The notes: generated by a model from the sequence alone, not told the origin. 64,000 nt of DNA from a bacterium (GCA_963674965.2 CAXXFL010000004.1:192001-256000), one strand, 5' to 3'. Positions 2,907 to 50,631 are shown, counted from the first letter of the stretch. Made by a program: numbers and translations.

Positions 2907-3694
2907 GACCCGGCCCGGCTTATGCCGAAGGCGCGAAAAGCGTTGGCCGTGGTGGCCTCGGCCACTTGTTCGAGGCTTTGATTCCTTATCCCGGCTATGG
3001 TCTCGGCCACCAGCCTTACATAGGCGGGCTCGTTTCTCTTTCCCCTGTGGGGCATGGGCGTGAGGAAGGGGCAATCGGTCTCGATAAGAATCCTGTCCGC
3101 CGGAAGTGACGCGGCCACCTCCGGCGCCTGCCTGGCGTTCTTATAGGTAATCGTGCCGGGAAAGGATATATAAAACCCCATGGCTAAAAGCTGACGGGCC
3201 ATCTCGGGGGACCCCGCGTAACAATGCATGATTCCCCCCGCCCGTGGCGCGCCGTCCTCGCGCAGGATTCTCATCAGATCGCCGTGGGCGTCCCGGTCGT
3301 GGATGACCACCGGCACGTCGAGTTCTCGCGCCAGGCCGAGCTGGTCGCGGAACCTTTTTATCTGGACTTCCCGGGGCGAGTAATTCTTGAAGTAATCCAG
3401 CCCGATCTCCCCGATGGCCACGACCTTTTCCCTTTTCGCCATGTCCCTTATCAGGCTGAGGTCCTCGTCCGTTATCTTCTTGGCGTCGTGAGGATGGACC
3501 CCGGCCGTGGCCCAGATATTCTCCCGACTCTCGGCCACCTCCAGCGCCCTTTGCATGCACTCGAGTCCGTCGCCCGAGCCGATGGTCACAATATACTCGA
3601 CCCCCGCCTCCCGGGCGCGGGCGATGACCTGGTCCCGGTCCTTATCAAAGGCCGGAAAATCCAGGTGAGCGTGAGTATCGAAAAGGGATATCAT
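2903..3694 (-). CDS. tatD: TatD-family hydrolase
   Basis: DTHAH, GVHPH, AIGEIGLDY, IHDRDA, ETDCPFL and RNEP motifs; start placed at ATG 3694. Confidence 0.93.
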   Translation of the reverse strand: MISLFDTHAHLDFPAFDKDRDQVIARAREAGVEYIVTIGSGDGLECMQRALEVAESRENIWATAGVHPHDAKKITDEDLSLIRDMAKREKVVAIGEIGLDYFKNYSPREVQIKRFRDQLGLARELDVPVVIHDRDAHGDLMRILREDGAPRAGGIMHCYAGSPEMARQLLAMGFYISFPGTITYKNARQAPEVAASLPADRILIETDCPFLTPMPHRGKRNEPAYVRLVAETIAGIRNQSLEQVAEATTANAFRAFGISRAGS

Positions 3695-3717
3695 CTCAAA
3701 AGCTAACCGCGCGGCGC

Positions 3718-5253
3718 CTATTTGTCCTCGATTCTGGGAAACAGCGCCGGCCCCTTGGTCATCCTGGTGTCCGCCTTCAGGCCGCACCATTTGACCTTGT
3801 CCGCCAGCGGCGGGTCGGAGGGTTTGCCCGGAGCGCCGATCTGTTCCCACATCTTTTCGGCCGACTCGGGCATGAACGGCGATATAAGTATGGCGGTGAT
3901 TCTCAGGCACTCGGCCAGGTTGTAAAGCACCGTGCCCAGCCTTTCCTTTTTTTCCGGGTCCTTGGCGAGAGTAAAGGGGGCGGTTTGGTCCACGTACTTG
4001 TTGGCCCTGCTTATCATGGCCCAGATCGAGGTAAGGGTCCGGCTGAAGCCGCATTCGGCCATGGCCGCCCGGACCTCCGTGACCGAGGTCTCGACCTGGC
4101 TTATCAGGTCCCGGTCCACGTCCTCGAGGGCGCCGGGGGCGGGTATGATTCCTCCCACGTACTTGCCGGCCATGCCCGCCGTCCGTGAAAGGAGGTTGCC
4201 CAGGTCGTTGGCCAGGTCGGAGTTGATCCTGCCCACCAGGGCCTGGTAAGAAAAGTCGCCGTCCAGCCCGAAGGGTATTTCCCTGAGCACGAAATAACGG
4301 AAGGGCTCGAGCCCGTACTTCTCGATCACCTCGTACGGATTAATGAAGTTGCCAAGGGACTTGCTCATTTTCTGGCCGTCGTTGGTCCACCAGCCGTGAG
4401 CGAAGACGGTCTCCGGCAGGGGCAGGCCGGCGCTCATGAGCAGGCACGGCCAGATGACCGCGTGATGTCTCAGGATGTCCTTCCCGATAAGGTGGACGCC
4501 GGCGGGCCAGAACTTGTTATATTTCTCGTCGTCCTCCTGCCCGAAGCCCAGGGCGGAGATATAGTTGGTCAGGGCGTCGACCCAGACGTAAAGCACGTGA
4601 TCCGTCGTTCCCGGCACGTGTATGCCCCAGTTGAAGCTGACCCGCGAGATGGAAAGGTCGTTAAGTCCCATCTCGACGAAGCTTTTGATCTCGTTTCTCC
4701 TGCTCTCGGGCATGATGAACCGGGGATGGCTCTCGATGTGCTCGAGCAGCTTGTCCTGGTACTTGCTCATGCGGAAGAAATAGGAGGGCTCGGACACCTT
4801 CTCCACCGGTCTTCCGCACATGGGGCACTTGCCGTCCTTGAGCTGCAACTCGGTGTAAAAGGTCTCGCAGGGAACGCAGTAAATACCCTCGTACTTGCCC
4901 AGGTAAACGTCGCCCGCCGCCTCGATCCTCTTGTAGAGCTCCGCGACGCCCTTTTTATGCCTTGCCTCGGTGGTCCTGACGTAGTCGTCGTTCCCGATCT
5001 TCATGTAGCGCCAAAGTTCCTTGAAATGCTCCGAGTTCTTGTCCGCCAGCTCTTGAGGCGTGATCCCCGCCAGCTCGGCCGCCCGCTGCATCTTCTGCCC
5101 ATGCTCGTCCGTGCCGGTAAGGAAATAAACTTCCTTTCCCGCAAGTCGGTGGTAGCGGGCCAGGACGTCGGCCGCCAGGGTGGTGTAGGCGTGTCCGATG
5201 TGGGGCACGTCGTTGACGTAATAAATGGGGGTCGTGACGTAGAACTTTTCCAT
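3718..5253 (-). CDS. metG: Methionine--tRNA ligase (short form, no C-terminal tRNA-binding domain)
   Basis: TTPIYYVN, HIGH and KMSKS motifs, CxxC..CxxC knuckle. Confidence 0.97.
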   Translation of the reverse strand: MEKFYVTTPIYYVNDVPHIGHAYTTLAADVLARYHRLAGKEVYFLTGTDEHGQKMQRAAELAGITPQELADKNSEHFKELWRYMKIGNDDYVRTTEARHKKGVAELYKRIEAAGDVYLGKYEGIYCVPCETFYTELQLKDGKCPMCGRPVEKVSEPSYFFRMSKYQDKLLEHIESHPRFIMPESRRNEIKSFVEMGLNDLSISRVSFNWGIHVPGTTDHVLYVWVDALTNYISALGFGQEDDEKYNKFWPAGVHLIGKDILRHHAVIWPCLLMSAGLPLPETVFAHGWWTNDGQKMSKSLGNFINPYEVIEKYGLEPFRYFVLREIPFGLDGDFSYQALVGRINSDLANDLGNLLSRTAGMAGKYVGGIIPAPGALEDVDRDLISQVETSVTEVRAAMAECGFSRTLTSIWAMISRANKYVDQTAPFTLAKDPEKKERLGTVLYNLAECLRITAILISPFMPESAEKMWEQIGAPGKPSDPPLADKVKWCGLKADTRMTKGPALFPRIEDK

Positions 5254-5419: not shown

Positions 5420-7627
5420 TTATTCGCTATTTATCTCTTTATCGTTATCGGCCGGCTTGTCCTTTTCTTTTCCCTCTTCCTCCTTGGGGGATCCCTCGGG
5501 GGGAAGACCGTTCGCCACCCTGGCGTTTATCAGGGCTTCCATGAACTTGGGCACGAGCTTTAAAGACGGGTCCTCCTCGAAGCTTTTCTCCAGGGGCTCG
5601 AGGGACTCCTTGATCCTGCCCTGCTCGATCAGGAACTGGGCCCATTCCTGAAGATATAAAATGTCGTCGGGCTTAGCCAACTGACCCGCCCGCTGGAACT
5701 CGGCCTCGGCCAGGGCCGGCCGTCCCTGCCGCTTGTAGACCAGGGCCATGCCCACCGCTCCCAGCGGGGTATCGACGACTTTCTCGTTCTGGAACTCGGC
5801 GAAGGCCTTGTCGTGGTCGCCAAGCTCGAGATATATCCTGCCCAGGAAGTACCGGGCCTGGACGCTGTCTTTAAGCTCGATCGATTTCTGGAAGGCCTTG
5901 GCCGCGTCCTGAAGGTATATCTGGGCCTCCTCCAGCATGTCCTTCTGGCGGGCCGCGTCGGCCAGTCTCATGTTGATCTTGCCGATCTGGACCCATCCCT
6001 CCTCGTTTTCCACCTGCCGCGTGAACCATGTATGGTAGGCCGCGATGGCCTCCTCGTAGCGGCCCAGGGCGAACAGGGCCTTGGCACGCGTCTCGAGGGC
6101 CACGGGGCTTTGCGTGTCGCCCTCGAGGACCTCGTCGGAAACGGCCAGCATCTTGTCGAACTGGTCCGCGACCAAAAGTTGGTTCAGGTTTTGCAACTTG
6201 GGTATTAGGTGCTGATAATCGAGCACGTCCTTTTTCATGGCCTTGTTGACGTCGCCCTCGAAGCCCCCGACCACGTAACCGAGGGCGTCAAGTTGGGCCA
6301 TGATCTCGGGAGAAAGGTCGCCCTCCTCCAACTCGGCGCTCTCGAGCTTGTCGCGCGACCATTCGCTCTCGAGACCGTCCAGCCTGGAGCGCATAATGTT
6401 GGCCTGCTTGCACGCGTCCCTCTTGGCGGGGTCCTCGTCATCGCATCCTCCCTCGATGAGATTTTTCAGCTCCTTGGGGTCGTCCTCGAGGTCGAACAGC
6501 AAAGGCTTTGGGGACTTGATGTATTTGTATTCCTTGTTCACCAGACCCGAGAGGGGGGCCCAGCCGTAATGCAGAAAAACGGACTTGCTTTCCATGTAGG
6601 CGAACCTGTCGGCCGGCGGAGGGGTCGCGCCATCGATAAGTCCCCAAAGGCTTTCCCCCGAGGCCTGAGCGGGAATCTCGATACCAAGGTAATCGAGCAC
6701 CGTGGGCAGGACGTCGATCTGGGAGGCGATGGTTTTAATCCGGGTTCCCGGCCTGGTCATGTTGGGAAAACGAGCGATCATGGGGATGTGCTGGGTACCC
6801 TCATAGATAAAGTTGGAATGGGTGGGCTCGTCATGCTCTCCAAGACCCTCGCCGTGGTCGCCCAGGCAGATGATTATGGTGTCGTCGTAAACCTTTAATT
6901 CTTTCAGCTTATCGAAAAGCCTTCCGATCTGCTTGTCCATGAAGGCTATTTCACCGTCGTATTTGGAAGGGTAAAGGAGCTTGTATTCCTCGGGCGGGTC
7001 GTAGGTCGCGTGAGGGTCGTAAAAATGCACCCACATGAAAAAGGGCTTGTCGTGATGCTCGCTAAGCCAGGCCATGCTCGCGTCGGCCGTCTTGTTTCCC
7101 AGACGCTCCGCGACAAGCACCGATCCTTCCTCCTGTTCCTCCAGTTCCTCCTCGTCCCAGTGATCGAACCCCTGGTCGAGCTTGAAGACTTTTCTCAGGA
7201 CCGCCGCGCTGATAAAAGCCGCCGTCTGATAGCCGTTCTTTTTCAGCGCCTCCGCCATGGTCTCGAGCTTGGCCGGAACGCGGTAGGCCCCGTTGTCGAT
7301 GACGCCGTTATATAGGGGGACCGTGCCGGTGAAAATGGAGGTATGGGCCGGAAGCGTAAGGGGTATATGGCTGTAGAACCGCTCGAAAAGCACTCCCTCC
7401 CTGGCCAGCCGGTTCAAGGTAGGGGTCTCGATCCAGCTATGGCCATAGGCCCGGATATGGTCGGCCCGCGTGGTGTCCATGGTGACGATAAGAACGTTCG
7501 GCTTGGATTTTTTCGAGCACGCCGACGAGCCGGCCAGGGTCCAGACAAGGCCGCCTCCGATAAGCATCCAGGCCAGGACCGCGGCCGCAAGGATTATGGA
7601 ACCGCGTCCGTTTCGAGTTTTTGCCAT
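5420..7627 (-). CDS. Sulfatase-like (alkaline phosphatase superfamily) hydrolase with TPR repeats
   Basis: PNVLIVTMDTTRADH, WVHFYDPH and GDHGE motifs; helical TPR-like C-terminus. Confidence 0.85.
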   Translation of the reverse strand: MAKTRNGRGSIILAAAVLAWMLIGGGLVWTLAGSSACSKKSKPNVLIVTMDTTRADHIRAYGHSWIETPTLNRLAREGVLFERFYSHIPLTLPAHTSIFTGTVPLYNGVIDNGAYRVPAKLETMAEALKKNGYQTAAFISAAVLRKVFKLDQGFDHWDEEELEEQEEGSVLVAERLGNKTADASMAWLSEHHDKPFFMWVHFYDPHATYDPPEEYKLLYPSKYDGEIAFMDKQIGRLFDKLKELKVYDDTIIICLGDHGEGLGEHDEPTHSNFIYEGTQHIPMIARFPNMTRPGTRIKTIASQIDVLPTVLDYLGIEIPAQASGESLWGLIDGATPPPADRFAYMESKSVFLHYGWAPLSGLVNKEYKYIKSPKPLLFDLEDDPKELKNLIEGGCDDEDPAKRDACKQANIMRSRLDGLESEWSRDKLESAELEEGDLSPEIMAQLDALGYVVGGFEGDVNKAMKKDVLDYQHLIPKLQNLNQLLVADQFDKMLAVSDEVLEGDTQSPVALETRAKALFALGRYEEAIAAYHTWFTRQVENEEGWVQIGKINMRLADAARQKDMLEEAQIYLQDAAKAFQKSIELKDSVQARYFLGRIYLELGDHDKAFAEFQNEKVVDTPLGAVGMALVYKRQGRPALAEAEFQRAGQLAKPDDILYLQEWAQFLIEQGRIKESLEPLEKSFEEDPSLKLVPKFMEALINARVANGLPPEGSPKEEEGKEKDKPADNDKEINSE

Positions 7628-7807
7628 GCGATATGATCCTCCAATTAATTTAGGCTTCCCGCGGGAGCCGCCGAATGGGTATATGTGTTTTGATTCCCCC
7701 GGAAAAAAATGGTTCGATTTTCAATCCTCCACCGATTATCCAACGTCCATCCTGGAGGTTCAAGACGCGAGAAGCGGAGGCGGGGAAAGGAATGGCTAAG
7801 ATACGGA

Positions 7808-34062: not shown

Positions 34063-34253
34063 CAGCCTCTTGCAAAAGTCCCGCTTTGGAGTCCCGCGCT
34101 GGAGCGCGGCGGCTCGGCGCCGCTTTTCTTCCGAGCGGCTTGACGCTAGGCAAGCCGTTGCATTAGACCTTGTCAAGCCAAGGCCATCGAAAGCGGTCTC
34201 AAGCGATTGCAAAGCGGCTATGCAGCCAAGAAAAAGATTTTTGTAAGACGCTC
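34063..34253 (-). mobile_element. MITE-like element with internal REP-type palindromes (copy 1)
   Basis: Imperfect terminal inverted repeats CAGCCTCTTGCAAAA / TTTTGTAAGACGCTC; reverse-complement similarity to 48843-50478. Confidence 0.75.
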
Positions 34254-34371
34254 GTATGACGCTGCAATCTTTGAAGCGTGCCATCCCCCGTCCGAGTCCC
34301 CGACTTGCGGGACGGGCGGGATTGTTGTATTCCCATGTTGTATGATCTTGACCGGTCCCTGGGGAGGATGG

Positions 34372-35410
34372 ATGAAAAACTCCGGATTATTTATCACGCT
34401 GGCGTGTCTTGTCGTCGCGTCACTTTTTTCCGGCCTGGGCCGGGCGGGGGACTCTTACCAGGACTTCGAGCCCAGGCTGATCATCATCGACGACGACGTG
34501 GGCATGCTGAAGTCGGAGGTGAAAAAGGACGGGCCCGTCCAGGCGCCATGGATACCCATCACCGACCCCGACGGCGGACTCGAGCTCATCTACGCCCTGC
34601 GCGACCCGAGCGTCAAGGTCCTGGGCGTGACCTGCGCCATGGGCTGCTCCTCCACGGAGGTATGCATGAAGTCCGCGGCCAGGATACTCGAGTACACCGG
34701 CGACCAGGACGTGCCCGTGCTGAGGGGGGCCGACTCGGCCGACGACCTGGGCAAGCCCACCGAGGCCGCCCGCTTCATCGTGGACGCGGTCATGTCCAAT
34801 CCCGGCAAGGTCGAGATCATCGCCACGGCGCCCCTCACCAACGGCCCTGATGCTCGAGCCCCGGCTGCCCGAGAACTGGCTGGCCCTGCACGTGGGCACG
34901 GGAGAGTTCGTGGGCGCCCTGGGCCACTATTCCGAGCTTGGCGAGTACGCCCGCCGCTTCGGCTACAAGGACTTGAATATTAACGTGGACCCCAAAGCCG
35001 CGGCTTACGTGCTCGACCGCGGTGGCGACTTCATCCTCTATCCCAACGAGATCATGGACGACGCGTCCCTTTACAAGCGCCACCGCGATGAGTTGAAGGA
35101 GTCGCCCTCCCCTCTCGCCAAATGGGTCGCCTCGGAAATGACGCCCTACGCCCCCATCATCGCGGCCATCGGGGCCGTGACCGGCGCGGGCAAGGGCATG
35201 CCCCTCCACGGCGTCATCCCCGCGGCCGCGGCCCTGGACCCGACCCTGGCCGAGCCTCCCGCCGAGCTCCGCTTCAAAATGGAATACGGCAAAAAGGGAG
35301 GCTACCGCTTCGTAATCACCGACGACCCGGAAGTACCCAAAAGAAAGGTATACGCTAAACTGGCCGACCCGGAAGAACTGGAGAAGAGGCTGGTGGAAAG
35401 ATTGAAGTGA
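34372..35410 (+). pseudogene. Nucleoside hydrolase (IU-NH family), frameshifted near 34843
   Basis: IIDDD..DPDGG and ATAPLTN in one frame; ALMLEPRL..NINVDP..PLHG continues in another frame. Confidence 0.75.
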
Positions 35411-45588: not shown

Positions 45589-45621
45589 TTGTGGGCCGGG
45601 GCTGTTCCCGTACGTCCCTTC

Positions 45622-46800
45622 CTACACCCCCCATGATATTTCGTCGCTTATTCCGGCGCGCTCCTTGATCAGCCTGGCAATGTCGTAACCGTCATCAAGG
45701 GATGACGAATGGGCAAGCCATATTGTTTTGCCATTGATTTTCAACCAGATCGGACCCTGTTTGGAGGTAAGGTAATATGTCGGGGAAAATACCTTCATGT
45801 CCTTGACGTGGAAGGTCTCGGTTTTTCCACGTAATCCAAAGTAGTCCATCCTCCTCGTAACCTGTCCGGGAATAGCGGTTATGACTTCGCCGCCAATAAA
45901 TGGCTTTATAGTTGAAATCACCAGAAAAAGTATAAGAAGAGTCATGGGAAACAGAAGTATTATGCCCAATCCGTCTCCGTCAATAATCAGTACAATCGGG
46001 ATCGCCGCCAGGACCGCGGTAATAATGAGGAGAATAGTAACGAGGAGGGCCAGGTCCGAGATTCGAGGTTTCCGAGTAATGGTTATAACCGCCTTATCGT
46101 CGTCGTCGTCTACGTCAATCTTATTTTCGCCGGCGTACAAAAGGTCCTTCCGGACGGGCTCTTGCGGCGGGGAAGACGCTTTATGGTCGATTATTCCCGT
46201 TTTTTGCTTTATTGCTCCGGCCAACTCGGCGGCCATCTCCAGAGGGAGGTCAAGGCCGAAAAGGAACCACAGTCCATCCTCCAGGCAAAGCCAGAAGGGA
46301 CCTTGAAAACCTGGATATAAAGCTTTTTCTCGAAAAGGCGACAGGGCAAGAAAGGATATCGTCTCCTTGGGATAGGCTGAGGTTTTATTGTAGAATAAGG
46401 AACGATTGAGGATAGTGATTCCCTCTGACGTTGCCGTTATGGTCTGCTTCTTCGAAAGAAAATGCGCCAGCGTTGCGGCGGATAAAATAAAAGTGGCGAT
46501 ATAGATGACCAGAATCAGAGCCAGAGGAAAAGTAATAGTAGCGTCCCTCAGCTTGTATAGAAGAAAGAAAAGAATGAAGGCAAAAGATACGGCGCCAAAA
46601 ACCCCTTTAAACGTCGTAAATCCGAGTAATTGCGGTCTTAGAGTTATTACCAGCTTATAGCCGTCGTCCTCGACGTGGACGCCTGGTTTGGTTCTGGATT
46701 TATTATCGAGGGCCTTTCGCCTATGTTCTCGTTTCCTTGGTCGTTCTTTCTTTGGCCTTTTCATTTTTGCTCTTGTAGACCAGATATATCTTTGCGCCAT
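45622..46800 (-). CDS. AT-rich membrane protein with an internally duplicated 2-TM plus beta-rich unit
   Basis: Two similar units (EDDGYKLVITLRP and DDDDKAVITITRKP), each followed by two TM helices; start codon uncertain. Confidence 0.65.
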   Translation of the reverse strand: MAQRYIWSTRAKMKRPKKERPRKREHRRKALDNKSRTKPGVHVEDDGYKLVITLRPQLLGFTTFKGVFGAVSFAFILFFLLYKLRDATITFPLALILVIYIATFILSAATLAHFLSKKQTITATSEGITILNRSLFYNKTSAYPKETISFLALSPFREKALYPGFQGPFWLCLEDGLWFLFGLDLPLEMAAELAGAIKQKTGIIDHKASSPPQEPVRKDLLYAGENKIDVDDDDDKAVITITRKPRISDLALLVTILLIITAVLAAIPIVLIIDGDGLGIILLFPMTLLILFLVISTIKPFIGGEVITAIPGQVTRRMDYFGLRGKTETFHVKDMKVFSPTYYLTSKQGPIWLKINGKTIWLAHSSSLDDGYDIARLIKERAGISDEISWGV

Positions 46801-47323
46801 AATTTACGGCCATCATTAGCGCCAGGACGAAGAAAATAAAGTGTAACCTATTTCGGGTGAAAAACGCTTCATACATGTGCAGCCTATGGCTTTCGACGTG
46901 ACTCGAAAGCATGGTGAAGGCGAGAACGGGGGGTTCAAATAAGATGACGCCTGCAATAATGGTGAAGAAAATTACGAAAAAAATGACCATGTTGGCCTTA
47001 TAGATCAAAATGTCCTCGCCTTTAAGTTTAGCTATAACGTATTTTAGAACGACCATACATGCCAGCAGCGATAATATTTCTATTTTCAGGCCGGGGAACT
47101 GGGTCGAGTCGAAGTTAAGGAAATTCCAGATCAGCAATCCTTGGATATCGATCAAAACCCCGCTAACTCCGCTGTTGCCTTGTTTCCCGTAATAAGAGAT
47201 GGCGCTCATGATCTCGAAAGCCGCGAGGATCATAATCAAATAAAGGAGGATGAAGGAAAAGTCCCCCACATATCCACGAATCTGTGGAAATAATGCCCGC
47301 CTTTTCAAAGGTTCATCACCCAT
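46721..47323 (-). CDS. AT-rich multi-TM hypothetical protein
   Basis: GAGGAG RBS before ATG 47323; about four hydrophobic helices. Confidence 0.65.
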   Translation of the reverse strand: MGDEPLKRRALFPQIRGYVGDFSFILLYLIMILAAFEIMSAISYYGKQGNSGVSGVLIDIQGLLIWNFLNFDSTQFPGLKIEILSLLACMVVLKYVIAKLKGEDILIYKANMVIFFVIFFTIIAGVILFEPPVLAFTMLSSHVESHRLHMYEAFFTRNRLHFIFFVLALMMAVNYGAKIYLVYKSKNEKAKERTTKETRT

Positions 47324-47340
47324 CTTGTATGCTCCTCGTA

Positions 47341-47608
47341 AGATCTGAAGATCTGGGGACATCATGAAGATCTGGGGACATAAGATCTGGGGACATCATA
47401 CATAACTCACTGCAGATCTGGGGCAGATCTGGGGACAGCAGATCTGGGGACAGCATACTTATCTCGCCTTTATTTACGGCTAGAGAGGCGTTTATGAATA
47501 TTCCATCAATATTCATCGTCGAAGAACCCAGCTGATTTTCAAAAATTAAGTACACTGTCCCCAGAACTCAAGAACTCACATAACTCAAGTACACTGTCCC
47601 CAGAACTC
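47341..47608. repeat. Stuttered array of GGGGACA-type end motifs, direct and inverted
   Basis: AGATCTGGGGACA at 47349, 47368, 47383, 47425 and 47440 (partials at 47341, 47414); inverted AAGTACACTGTCCCCAGAACTC twice (about 47548 and 47587). Confidence 0.9.
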
Positions 47609-47742
47609 CAAGCTATTCATTATCCGGCCTCTATAGCTTTAATTGCCGATATTGACATGAGATATCGGAAACGTCAATATTTATTTTTGATGACATCATA
47701 TATAATGCCCCCATATCCACGGATACAAATTCCGAGCGAAAT

Positions 47743-47961
47743 TCAAGATGACCAGGACATTTTCAAGTCACGCTGGGTCGCCGCGCAATCTTGCAGATAC
47801 AGGTTGATCAAGGATTGGTATGGAATGCCTTTTTCCGCTGACATCTCCTTGAAGTATTCGATGACTTCCGGGTCCAACCGGAGCGTGATCTGCTTCTTGA
47901 GCCTTTTGGCATACGGGTTTTTCCGCGATTTCATTTTGGAAAGATCGTATTCGTTTTTCAT
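47743..47961 (-). CDS. BrnA-like (CopG/RHH) antitoxin
   Basis: MKNEYDLS..KNPYAKRLKKQITLRLD..GIPYQSLINLYL. Confidence 0.85.
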   Translation of the reverse strand: MKNEYDLSKMKSRKNPYAKRLKKQITLRLDPEVIEYFKEMSAEKGIPYQSLINLYLQDCAATQRDLKMSWSS

Positions 47962-47965
47962 TTGG

Positions 47966-48247
47966 TCACCTCACGTAGTGTTTGGATTCGGATTTCGTCG
48001 CCTTGCGCGCCGAAATAATTCGAATCGTCTCTTCGTCTTCCCGGTGGCAATGGCAGACAAGAAGAAGTCGCGCATGGGCGCTGATTCCCAAAAGCAAAAA
48101 GCGATCTCCTTCTTCCGAATGTGGTTCGTCATAAAACTCAATGGCGTGCTCGTCATACAAAACCGTGCGCGCTTCTTCGAACTTTACGCCGTGTTTTTTG
48201 AAATTGCTTTTCGCCTTTTTAGCGTCTTATGTGAATCTAATACCCAT
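47966..48247 (-). pseudogene. BrnT-family toxin with premature stop
   Basis: Manual translation MGIRFT*DAKKAKSNFKKHGVKFEEARTVLYD...RIISARKAT; TAA at 48227-48229 where a Trp is expected. Confidence 0.8.
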
Positions 48248-48249
48248 TA

Positions 48250-48286
48250 TAACTACAATGTAACTACACGAGTGCCCTTTTGTCAA
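48250..48286 (-). promoter_or_regulatory. Sigma-70-type promoter of the brnTA operon with a direct-repeat candidate operator
   Basis: TTGACA-18 nt-TACATT; TGTAGTTA occurs twice around the -10 element. Confidence 0.55.
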
Positions 48287-48336
48287 GACACTCTCACGCG
48301 GAAATATCCGTATAATATATGGACACCTTACTTAAC

Positions 48337-48613
48337 TCACTTCTTTTCAGGCTTTGGGCCCGGCTTTTGGGGGGCGAAGCGGCGGCCGAGGGCGGCCTCG
48401 AGTCCCGCGACGAAGTCCTTTACTCCGAGGGGGCGCTCGGCGAGCTCGTGCGTTTTTATTCGCGATACCTCGGAGCCAATTACGGGCAGATTCAAAAAGT
48501 CCTCCAAATTATAAGGTACCTTGTTGAACCGAAAAGGTTTGCTGCCTCCCGTTGCCCGGCTGGGTAACGTGGTGGGGCGCGTGAGGAACAACGGCTCTTG
48601 CCATCCTGACCAT
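48337..48613 (-). pseudogene. Internally deleted REP-associated tyrosine transposase (RAYT)
   Basis: N-terminus MVRMARAVVPHAPHHVTQPGNGRQQTF and, in another frame, C-terminus ERPLGVKDFVAGLEAALGRRFAPQKPGPK; catalytic core absent. Confidence 0.75.
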
Positions 48614-48619
48614 GGCAAA

Positions 48620-48648
48620 ATTTTGCCCCAGAGGAAGATGTATGTCAA
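48620..48648 (-). promoter_or_regulatory. Sigma-70-type promoter of the RAYT remnant
   Basis: TTGACA-17 nt-CAAAAT, 6 nt upstream of ATG 48613. Confidence 0.55.
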
Positions 48649-48669
48649 TAATCAAGTATGGTCCCCCAT

Positions 48670-48840
48670 ATTTACTTCTCGGGGTCTTCCACGGGACAGG
48701 CCGCAAGCGCCTGCAACTTTATCTCGGCGAGTTTTGTTATCGCTTGAACCGCCGCCTCTGGGAAGGAGAGTTGTTCGACCGACTTATAAGGGCATGCGCA
48801 ACACCGGGAGGGCTACTCGTTAGGAGTTAACCGCAAAGCC
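48670..48840 (+). pseudogene. IS1595-family transposase C-terminal remnant with probable right end
   Basis: GVFHGTGRKRLQLYLGEFCYRLNRR..LFDRLIRAC motif, followed by GAGTTAACCGCAAAGCC. Confidence 0.7.
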
Positions 48841-48989
48841 ATGAGCTTCTTGCAAAAGTCCTTTTCTTTGCGGCATAGCCGCTTTGGAGTGCGGTCGCTT
48901 GAGACCGCTTTCGAGGGCCTTGGCTTCAAGGCCTATTAATACACCGGCTTGCCTCGCGTCAAGCCGCTCGGAAGAAAAGCGGCGTCAAG

Positions 48990-50437
48990 TGTACAGACCG
49001 GAGACATGCTTCACAAGTGTTCGGGCACATAGGTAACATATTTCCTCGCTTGCTCGCGCTCCTGCTATTGACCTATTTTTCCTCGACCTAAGTTTATCTA
49101 TGCATCGATCACGTGGCCAGTCAAGGGCGGCGCAGCCGTCCCGCAGGGATTTACCCTTGACGGGCCTCGTGGAGATGCTATCGTCCTCATGGTCGAGAAA
49201 ACCTTTTATCACGTTTGCCTCCAGCTATGGTCTCGCAGATCGACGACCATGATCCGTTGGCGGCAGTAATAAACCTCGATCACGCCGTCCACTTGTGTAT
49301 TTCGCAAGCCGACCTTTTCACCAACGAAGGCCCGCCCCACTGGATAAAACTCGCCTTTGATTCTAACCGCCCCGCCCGGGTTCACCTTGCAAGTCGGCCA
49401 ATCATCCCGATACCAGACTTCGGGCAGAGTCTCGGGATAGGCAAAGGGGCTCATCGCGTAACGGCTGGCCGGCGTGTTCATGTCCAGGGCCTCGTGGGGA
49501 CGTTCATGGTTATAGCAGTCGCGAAAACGGTCGAAGGCTTTCTGACAGTCGTTCAGGTCGCCGAAGTTGCGTCCCCTTATCGCCTCCTCCTTAAGGGTCC
49601 GGTTGAACCGCTCGTTCTTGCCCTGGGTCTGGGGATGAAAGGGACGGCCGTGGCTGATGCCGACGCCGAGCCTGATCAGCCAGGCGCTCATGTAGTTGTA
49701 ACGCGAGTTCGGCGCGCAGAAGCTCGATCCGTTGTCGGTAAGTATGCGGCTGGGCAGGCCGTAGCGCATGAAGACCGGCGCCAGGCTTGCCCGCACGGTG
49801 TCCGCCCGTTCGTTGGAGCAGGCGGTGACCGTCAACGCGAACCTGGAGTGGTCGTCCACCACGGTGAGAGGGTGACAGGAACCGGCCGCCGTCGGAAAAT
49901 GTCCCTTGAAATCCATCTGCCACAACTGGTTGGGAGCCTCTCGTTCGAAACGCTTCATGGGACCGCGAGCCTTGCGCTGGGCGTCCCGCAGCCTGCCGTT
50001 GCGGTCGAGGATCGCCGTGATCGTGCTCGGCCTTGGCACTTCGTCGTGACCAAGATCGATCAGCCGCCGCTCGATTTTGCGCCCTCCCCAGGTCGGATGC
50101 TCGTCGCGAACCGAAAGCACCAACTGCTCGACCTCCGGGCAAACACGCTGGGGAGATCGCCTGGGACGGCGGGACCTGTCACATGCCCAGTCCTCTTCAC
50201 CGCTTTGCCCACGGCTGATCCACTTGTAGCCGGTGCGGCGACTGATACCGAATCGACGGCATAACTCGCTTATGTTGGAACCTGGCTGCATCGCTAAATA
50301 AACAAAATCCTTCCTCTGAGACACTTCGGTAACCTCATTCCATGGCATCTTTCTTCTCCTGTATTGACATACAGAAGAATGTACCAACTGTTACCCATGT
50401 CTCCGAACACCTGTTACCCATGTCTCCGGTCTGTACA
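48990..50437 (-). mobile_element. IS481-family insertion sequence
   Basis: Perfect inverted repeats TGTACAGACCGGAGACATG; CAAG duplicated at 48986-48989 and 50438-50441. Confidence 0.92.
49209..50348 (-). CDS. IS481-family transposase
   Basis: HTH LCRRFGISRRTGYKW; DDE motifs WQMDFKG, TDNG and GKNERFNRTLK. Confidence 0.95.
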   Translation of the reverse strand: MPWNEVTEVSQRKDFVYLAMQPGSNISELCRRFGISRRTGYKWISRGQSGEEDWACDRSRRPRRSPQRVCPEVEQLVLSVRDEHPTWGGRKIERRLIDLGHDEVPRPSTITAILDRNGRLRDAQRKARGPMKRFEREAPNQLWQMDFKGHFPTAAGSCHPLTVVDDHSRFALTVTACSNERADTVRASLAPVFMRYGLPSRILTDNGSSFCAPNSRYNYMSAWLIRLGVGISHGRPFHPQTQGKNERFNRTLKEEAIRGRNFGDLNDCQKAFDRFRDCYNHERPHEALDMNTPASRYAMSPFAYPETLPEVWYRDDWPTCKVNPGGAVRIKGEFYPVGRAFVGEKVGLRNTQVDGVIEVYYCRQRIMVVDLRDHSWRQT

Positions 50438-50631
50438 CAAGCCGCCGCACTCCAAAGCGGGAATTTTGCAAGAGGCTCCCATATATTGGAATTCATCCCC
50501 ATGAAGACTTATACAAGAGGCCCTTCCGTAAATTTCTCATTCCCTCATTTTCATCGATTTGGCGCCGGGCGGCCCCGCCGTGTTAGAATATTGCATGTTG
50601 CTTAGCTCGTGATTTTTCTGGTGGAGGAAAA

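Follow-up and report, generated by a model that had tools for sequence, protein, structure and literature searches.

The window examined here is a stretch of 64,000 nucleotides (nt) of bacterial DNA, C4:192001-256000 in a genome of 6.5 Mb and seven contigs (C1-C7; genome G000 below). Between 45,622 and 48,841 it contains an operon of two membrane genes (mem214 and mem392), a brnTA toxin-antitoxin (TA) module and the 3' remnant of an IS1595-family insertion sequence (IS), and among them lie copies of a short repeat. The initial annotation put these genes forward as passengers of a candidate cassette system, in which a RAYT transposase acting in trans would assemble or shuffle genes at GGGGAC/GTCCCC-type motifs. 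Our analysis partly confirms that observation and partly supports its interpretation. Judged by their sequence, the repeats are the terminal inverted repeats of TIRtrons, small elements in which the gene of a Y1/HUH transposase (TIRYT, a relative of RAYT) stands between 26-nt repeats of this kind. The reading that we favour, with a probability of about 0.55, takes 47341-48675 for a nest of TIRtron derivatives in a hot spot of accessory DNA; on this reading brnTA and the membrane operon are DNA between elements, not cargo.

The repeat and its transposase

The hexamer GGGGAC, originally named as the motif at the module boundaries, had to be rejected as a motif by itself, since its 74 copies in the window are at chance level (67.5 expected; 23 of 100 shuffles reach 74). 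The repeat behind it is real and longer, an end with a full length of 19-27 nt, TCTGGGGACAGCATACTTA. Its core, CTGGGGACA, is found 7 times in the window against 0.58 expected, a count that no shuffle reaches, and all seven copies fall in 47353-47603. When the window was scanned with a 27-nt weight matrix built from 49 end copies outside it, 11 of 127,948 positions scored at least 4, and 10 of these 11 were within 47348-48338. Genome-wide there are 53 end copies with at most three mismatches, and a search with an 18-mer gives 54 copies compared with 3 for the reversed control pattern. The ends read GGGGACAG or GGGGACAC, both of which fit the terminal inverted repeat consensus GGGGWSAS, and the end sequence is nearly identical across phyla (AATTC-C/T-GGGGACACCATACTTAATT). 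Single ends do not form a hairpin of their own (compared with shuffles, the 5' end folds at z = +0.9 and the 3' end at z = -1.4), and therefore the motif is not a classical repetitive extragenic palindromic (REP) sequence.

The only intact element of this kind in the genome is on C7. Its TIRYT gene (C7:626054-626719, 221 aa) lies between inverted ends at C7:625996 and C7:626722, and the product carries the Y1 transposase domain PF01797 at residues 19-122 with 45.7 bits (cut-off 23); a match in a 241-aa frame is placed at C7:626102-626419. NHVH (the HuH motif) and YVEMNP (of the Y---NP type) can be read in the translation, and the NCBIfam model REP_Tyr_transpos scores 74 bits, just under its equivalog cut-off of 80. 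The initial proposal that the motifs are the ends of a RAYT-like transposon is thus upheld by the Y1 domain, the inverted ends and the fit to GGGGWSAS.

Relatives of this TIRYT are very widespread, with 489 confirmed among 558 matched stretches from contigs of one genome per species, although the name TIRYT is found in just three papers of the library searched. We counted ends at the best 80 of the 489, which are 56-66% identical and come from many phyla. At 53 of the 80 loci the gene has an end no more than 200 nt away on either side, and the upstream end is typically separated from the start by 55 nt; at 16 there is an upstream end only, at 8 a downstream end only, and at 3 neither. Upstream ends are doubled or tripled at about 15 of the 80 loci in our own tally. 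With both ends this close to the transposase gene, the 53 two-ended loci leave no room for a second gene.

Published work has described genes akin to RAYT whose flanking terminal inverted repeats have GGGGWSAS in common, the repeats occurring "in dimers or clusters" (Di Nocera et al. 2013, PMC3733652), and has placed most such genes in TnpA-Y1 subclass 2.1 with the motifs NHVH and YIELNP (Quentin et al. 2018, PMC6006769), as far as the consulted parts of these papers go. By the same parts of both sources, the likeness extends to the Y1/HUH gene between GGGGWSAS-type repeats, to NHVH with Y---NP, and to moderately abundant repeats in dimers or clusters; on sequence grounds we assign the C7 element and its derivatives to this TIRtron/TIRYT class. 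One difference is that the C7 protein, at 221 aa, shows no Pfam-detectable C-terminal helix-turn-helix of subclass 2.1 (Bac_DnaA_C, HTH_23, HTH_28; PF01797 is its sole Pfam family at E up to 1), which does not rule out that subclass because the tail of group 2.1.2 is heterogeneous according to the consulted part of PMC6006769. Four features seen here are absent from the portions of the TIRtron descriptions that we consulted, namely two families of miniature inverted-repeat transposable elements (MITEs) that share the ends, a deletion copy at four loci, stacks of truncated ends, and the bracketing of AT-rich modules.

Elements and genes at the locus

The features of the locus are collected in Table 1. 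All elements between 47341 and 48675 are TIRtron derivatives, and none has an intact transposase.

Table 1. Coordinates of the elements and genes at the locus and of the intact TIRtron on C7 (window positions unless a contig is given)
Feature	Position	Strand	Description
mem392	45622-46764	-	380-392 aa; four hydrophobic stretches in two pairs
mem214	46721-47323	-	200 aa from ATG 47321-47323; first gene of the two-gene operon
Stack of truncated ends	47341-47439	+	each from outer tip AGATCT, broken off after 8-31 nt
MITE-A	47440-47568	+	complete 129-nt non-coding element with inverted ends
Extra MITE-A right end	47579-47608	-	30-nt copy of 47540-47569 at 90% identity; 47582-47608 scores 33.8 on the matrix
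MITE-B, truncated	47609-47719	-	about 110 nt (right part) left of a 175-nt element
brnA antitoxin	47743-47961	-	72 aa, intact; PF14384, 40.1 bits (cut-off 26.1)
brnT toxin	47966-48247	-	in-frame TAA at codon 7 (48227-48229)
brnTA promoter-like site	48257-48286	-	TTGACA, 18 nt, TACATT; 10 of 12 consensus positions
Internally deleted TIRtron	48315-48675	-	about 396 bp missing; two BLAST segments to C7:625993-626745, 90% and 93%
IS1595-family 3' remnant	48672-48841	+	last 170 bp; truncated precisely at the deleted TIRtron's outer tip
Intact TIRtron	C7:625994-626745		sole intact copy in the genome

In the stack, an 8-nt stub begins at 47341 and truncated ends led by AGATCT begin at 47349, 47368, 47383, 47414 and 47425, with matrix matches at 47348, 47367, 47382 and 47424; a comparable stack of ends is located at C6:75784-75909. 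The complete MITE-A that follows has about 15 copies in the genome: 13 other sites match it over at least 110 nt at 76-98% identity, and one further copy (C4:374929-376716) is split by an IS3 copy. As single-stranded DNA it folds into a single long hairpin through its ends (z = -4.9; none of 200 shuffles as good), and no target duplication was seen at five MITE-A copies. MITE-B matches 7 other loci at 77-91% in BLAST, and 8 copies were aligned. Its degenerate end, 47693-47719, overlaps a weak plus-strand end, and it is here that a degenerate fused motif had been annotated at 47692-47716. The motif is indeed degenerate, with matrix scores of 9.8 on the minus and 5.7 on the plus strand (eighth and ninth best in the window), but it is the end of the 175-nt element.

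The internally deleted TIRtron keeps both ends, the promoter (a promoter-like site is at 48648-48620), the first codons and about the last third of the transposase gene. Three loci on C6 (C6:71852-72181, C6:73917-74266 and C6:486571-486914) align to it unbroken over 332-353 nt across the deletion junction, and from the alignments we read them as sharing the same deletion, which brings this derivative to four copies of the same length. A deletion copy at four loci indicates that the derivative itself was copied, presumably by an enzyme in trans. The motifs at 48321 and 48667, which had been taken as module boundaries, are both real ends, and the IS1595 remnant does start at an outer tip; however, they are the two ends of this one deleted TIRtron and hence not two cassette borders. 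The remnant is 78-79% identical to C1:1248258-1248418 and C1:1253480-1253650, and it weakly matches the last 25 profile positions of PF12762, below the cut-off.

The brnTA pair can be placed with the type II BrnT/BrnA modules by two adjacent genes that pass the Pfam cut-offs, the toxin frame itself being interrupted. The last 64 aa of brnT match PF04365 with 54.7 bits (cut-off 34.5), and in our own comparison of translations the BrnT homolog of a related genome of the same order, G007, has Trp at about the place of the TAA. The window brnTA looks like a decaying module. Its brnA is 89% identical to the G007 homolog, and brnA relatives number 477 among 594 matched metagenome stretches. The homologs share a block of about 550 bp that includes the promoter, reaches slightly beyond the stop of brnA and recurs in many unrelated contexts. 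The limits of homology are -326 to +219 from the brnA start, with the promoter-side limit at about 48287. In the window the module is 23-25 bp from an element tip on either side, between the outer tips of two elements. The two short segments that separate it from these tips, 47720-47742 and 48288-48311, are by eye an imperfect inverted repeat of one another (ACGGATA...TTCCG.GCG), and one arm overlaps a computed inverted-repeat pair (I5).

The membrane operon has a GC content of about 0.46, and neither of its proteins has a Pfam or PADLOC family. mem392 was found in one of 13 genomes of the phylum; it has paralogs at C2:24450-25556 (50%) and C7:9932-11062 (35%), and its look-alikes in the atlas are Planctomycetota proteins without names, which serve as leads only. 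The array of repeats said to adjoin these genes is there: the ribosome-binding site of mem214 (GAGGAG, 47332-47337) is 3 nt from the stub at 47341, and the ATG is 17 nt from it. A consensus scan of the stack detected no promoter reading into the operon on that strand. The other border is different, as the motif claimed at 45598-45618 has a best matrix score of -30.6 and by eye is not a truncated end either, so that the left border of the operon has no end by the matrix. The first 196 nt of mem214 recur at C7:9710-9905 (96%), and this homology goes no further than 47338, at the start of the stack. At this C7 locus (C7:9710-9985) the copy of the mem214 start stands 23 nt after a 57-nt copy of the mem392 end (93%), which closes the far more distant of the two paralogs (35% at the amino acid level); the arrangement may be the remnant of a tandem array or of recombination. 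The single joint in the contigs of two sequencing runs, 47338 to 45622 with 23 letters between, is this paralogous locus and not a circle.

Elements and the travel of genes

The element family has a strong bias towards AT-rich accessory DNA. Of the 31 clumps of ends, 17 are within 10 kb of another clump, where random placement gave a mean of 2.7 and a maximum of 15 in 2000 trials, and the flanks of ends have a median GC of 0.536 versus 0.590 at random positions (Mann-Whitney p = 4e-9). That the co-location of motifs and boundaries is a matter of chance in a region crowded with mobile DNA is consequently very improbable: the chance-level hexamer and the one claimed boundary of four that is not a motif fit such an explanation, but 10 of the 11 best matrix positions lie within 1 kb of the 64 kb, and both the clustering and the GC bias are far beyond random.

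The nest could have arisen in the following way. The single intact TIRYT would move derivatives in trans, and new copies would land in or beside existing ends, which would account for the nests as well as for the stacks of truncated ends. Copies would be retained at the edges of small modules gained by horizontal transfer, and later deletions or recombination between copies would trim the neighbouring DNA to the element tips. DNA trimmed to a tip is seen in the truncated IS1595, the truncated MITE-B and the DNA upstream of the membrane operon, which stops 3 nt before the ribosome-binding site. A trans-acting enzyme, an ability foreseen in the initial annotation and now backed by the intact copy on C7, has probably multiplied those elements in which no transposase is intact. 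Where a confirmed end stands next to brnTA or the membrane operon, it is always an outer tip, and the body of its element lies away from the genes. The family brackets small AT-rich accessory modules far above chance in G000 and G007. Each confirmed motif is part of an element, complete or decayed, and the genes are outside these elements, next to the outer tips.

Capture or shuffling of genes by these elements is not shown, and the cassette idea has to be regarded as doubtful. None of the nine segments between or beside elements in G000 recurs as an end-bounded unit, and no end lies closer than 3 kb to either of the two loci of membrane-gene paralogs (C7:9.7-11.1 kb and C2:24.4-25.6 kb). As to the excised circles that were suggested as a check, the contigs of two sequencing runs of one sample show no excision joint, which is weak evidence because contigs drop rare forms and break at repeats. 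The nearest genomes compared belong to other genera of the family, and the only syntenic gene in them is an amidase gene, joined in one of them by its upstream neighbour.

Several results weigh against the nest reading and towards a serious rival, in which the elements are vehicles and the transposase moves or captures small AT-rich modules (TA, defence, immunity and orphan genes) in trans. The unit could be a composite, cargo with an element on each side, for which the outermost ends are used, or else cargo with one hairpin-folding doublet of ends that inserts at another end, comparable to an integron cassette and its attC. This rival is the initial proposal recast to suit the anatomy. What makes this rival serious is the tight and AT-rich bracketing in two genomes, rich in defence genes in G007, with a shift of composition at the tips; passive settling of copies may not account for brackets this tight. 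Five of the ten G000 segments between neighbouring elements have a GC below 0.47, a level reached by 3.9% of the 1-kb windows of the whole genome. By our own count MITE-A is AT-rich too, which in our judgement confounds a comparison of edge and inside for such segments. In G007, which has 52 ends, we took all neighbouring pairs of ends 0.4-3 kb apart, and all seven minus/plus pairs enclose one to three genes, though this geometry is uninformative because any series of symmetric elements gives it. The enclosed genes have a GC of 0.30-0.39 in five of the seven pairs, and the flanking open reading frames (ORFs) are mostly at 0.50-0.68. These G007 ends are not solo: beyond them the sequence continues into a MITE or into the 3' end of a TIRYT gene. 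Read from the boundary sequences, the first gene begins no more than 35 nt from a tip in five of eight modules (four of the seven in G007, and the membrane operon of the window), and such cargo starts 5-35 nt away. In other phyla, a further end is found 0.6-1.3 kb from the TIRtron at 16 of the 80 loci, and the proteins in these 16 segments are mostly small orphans (16 of the 21 ORFs have no Pfam family).

As regards defence genes between the elements, 5 of 18 proteins in G007 modules (4 of 10 regions) match defence models, compared with 1 of 12 proteins in G000. The G007 matches are an NsnA-like protein with GmrSD_N, PDC-S15 with FRG, SIR2, an AAA ATPase and a TIR effector. Fifteen of the 18 cargo proteins of G007 have no homolog in G000, and of the rest only some among the many paralogs of one Kelch-type protein are within 1.5 kb of an end. 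Four G007 loci (L222, L226, L227 and L228) are AT-rich modules between elements with terminal inverted repeats and carry defence-type genes; among the module genes, a GmrSD_N/NsnA gene is next to an FRG-domain/PDC-S15 gene, and an AAA_15/21 ATPase and a CAP12/Pycsar-type TIR effector are also seen.

The recurrence of the 550-bp brnTA block in many contexts is a further point for the vehicle. For 58 metagenome loci with enough flank, we looked for a repeat within 300 bp on each side of the module, and 8 of the 58 have one on both sides, in direct orientation in all cases, against 1 of 117 shifted control placements. Y1 enzymes such as that of IS608 act on one strand and recognise like-oriented ends, so cargo between direct repeats of an end would be a plausible substrate. 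The flanking repeats are of several kinds, including two TIRYT-like families (L140 and L141; L142), a 60-nt repeat (L188 and L201) and others. Compared within the block, L140 and L141 are alike from just past brnA to the outer tip of the upstream end, and the block common to L142 and L143 includes an upstream repeat. A GGGGWSAS-type sequence stands beside the module at 5 of 15 inspected loci, and in L158, a contig of 1088 nt, brnTA is between inward-facing ends of the window's own family. The brnTA module of G007 has ends of a second TIRYT family on either side (GGGGTCAGG...; 21 copies, none with the reversed control pattern), and 2.8 kb away an intact TIRYT gene of 327 aa (G007:C11) is flanked by ends of that family as well.

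At L188 and L201 the flanking direct copies of the 60-nt repeat (31 nt matched in L201) begin with TAAC and end with GTTA, and at L188 the shifted control placement also meets a direct repeat, which suggests a longer array. At four related loci (L144, L155, L157 and L159) brnTA adjoins the end of an integrase-type transposase gene. brnTA thus travels like a cassette, often among such repeats, and neither the repeats nor the layout are uniform. In no brnTA case is the transposase shown to do the moving.

The vehicle explanation is tentative for a number of reasons: no passenger unit is present twice in G000, the membrane-gene paralogs and the left border of the operon are without ends, brnTA has repeats of various unrelated kinds beside it at other loci, the two-ended homolog loci have no space for cargo, the minus/plus geometry carries no information, and circles and excision joints were absent from the contigs, a weak point as said. 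On the side of the nest reading, no empty site was seen, and self-targeting and trimming by recombination are what we infer. If the vehicle explanation were true, a widespread Y1/HUH family would be an integron-like shuttle of accessory genes that works without integrase or attC. If the link between elements and AT-rich modules is causal, it is a new route for defence and TA genes; if it is not, the elements are signposts of accessory hot spots. In either case, the locus and its genome offer a clean set of derivatives with which the mobile unit can be defined, comprising the intact gene, deletion copies, two MITE families and the stacks.

It is unlikely, though less so than chance, that the ends are breakpoints or landing sites of other machinery, either through homologous recombination between the dispersed copies of 130-350 nt, by which flanks could be shuffled, or through other mobile DNA (IS110-type elements, TA cassettes) that would insert at the ends and duplicate part of an end. 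Three junctions of a tip with a truncated sequence (47338/47341, 47608/47609 and 48672) agree with it, and so do the IS110-family transposase genes directly beside ends on C3 (L021, C3:17000-25000, at 3642-4658) and C7 (L023, C7:507000-521000, at 6675-7694). In the consulted parts of two papers, REPs are reported as targets of insertion sequences (PMC3733652) and TA operons of Photorhabdus as flanked by a duplicated palindrome like the res site of Tn3 (PMC13617665); PMC8450116 reportedly also treats REPs as insertion sequence targets. On the other hand, the reciprocal product of such recombination was not found, and the explanation overlaps with the nest that we favour.

Known systems and neighbouring repeats

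The combination of a RAYT with REP or REPIN sequences is called a REPtron, reportedly described by Nunvar in 2010 and by Bertels and Rainey in 2011. The C7 element resembles it in having one intact transposase gene per genome flanked by the presumed substrate repeat, and in the clusters of repeats; the inverted-repeat doublets of MITE-A, which fold into a hairpin, resemble REPINs. It differs in that a single end here has no hairpin, no GT[AG]G tag (GTAG or GTGG) is seen in the end, and there are about 50 ends per genome, not hundreds. The conservation of the end sequence together with the gene across phyla suggests horizontal spread over long vertical co-evolution, in contrast to the REPtron.

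In integrons, cassettes are recombined between attC and attI by IntI. The arrangement described here is similar as regards the small, often promoterless, orphan or TA modules between foldable short sites, with a first gene that sometimes begins a few nt after the site; it is different in that the sites are ends of transposable elements in mixed orientation, and no recombination event was seen. Among 25 ORFs scanned in 25250-52347 there is no integron integrase, the sole rve-type protein being an IS481-family transposase; no search with an attC model was made. The IS200/IS605 elements (IS608-type) and IS91/ISCR use HUH chemistry on single-stranded DNA and leave no target duplication, and ISCR is the known case of an HUH element that picks up neighbouring genes. 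Compared with IS200/IS605, the elements of this locus have inverted ends instead of subterminal hairpins, lack tnpB, and are of RAYT-like class 2 rather than class 1.1; the ISCR enzymes are a different HUH family. The Photorhabdus case, as given in the consulted part of the source (PMC13617665), is alike in that a TA operon of about 0.6 kb occurs in unrelated contexts between two copies of a short site. There the site is resolvase-like, a short Tn3 res-like palindrome, while here the sites are ends of Y1 elements and the two nearest copies are inverted.

Other mobile DNA was encountered around the elements. IS3- and IS5-type genes are inside or next to element nests on C3, C4 and C7. At L024 (C4:372000-384000), a locus of RHS repeats, copies of MITE-A and MITE-B alternate with ankyrin, SUFU-domain and orphan genes, possibly of an immunity type. 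Elsewhere in the window, a nucleoside hydrolase (PF01156) extends over two overlapping ORFs at 34207-35410 (profile positions 12-125 and 159-263) and may be frameshifted. A separate repeat family begins at 48843, just after the IS1595 remnant. Well over 90 genomic sites are 85-100% identical to its part 48843-48900, and short pieces of 48870-48990 match genomes of other genera at 72-100%. Inside this repeat, which spans 48843-50478, is an IS481-family element of 1470 bp (48979-50448) with six other copies at 99-100% identity, three of which also have the repeat as flanks.

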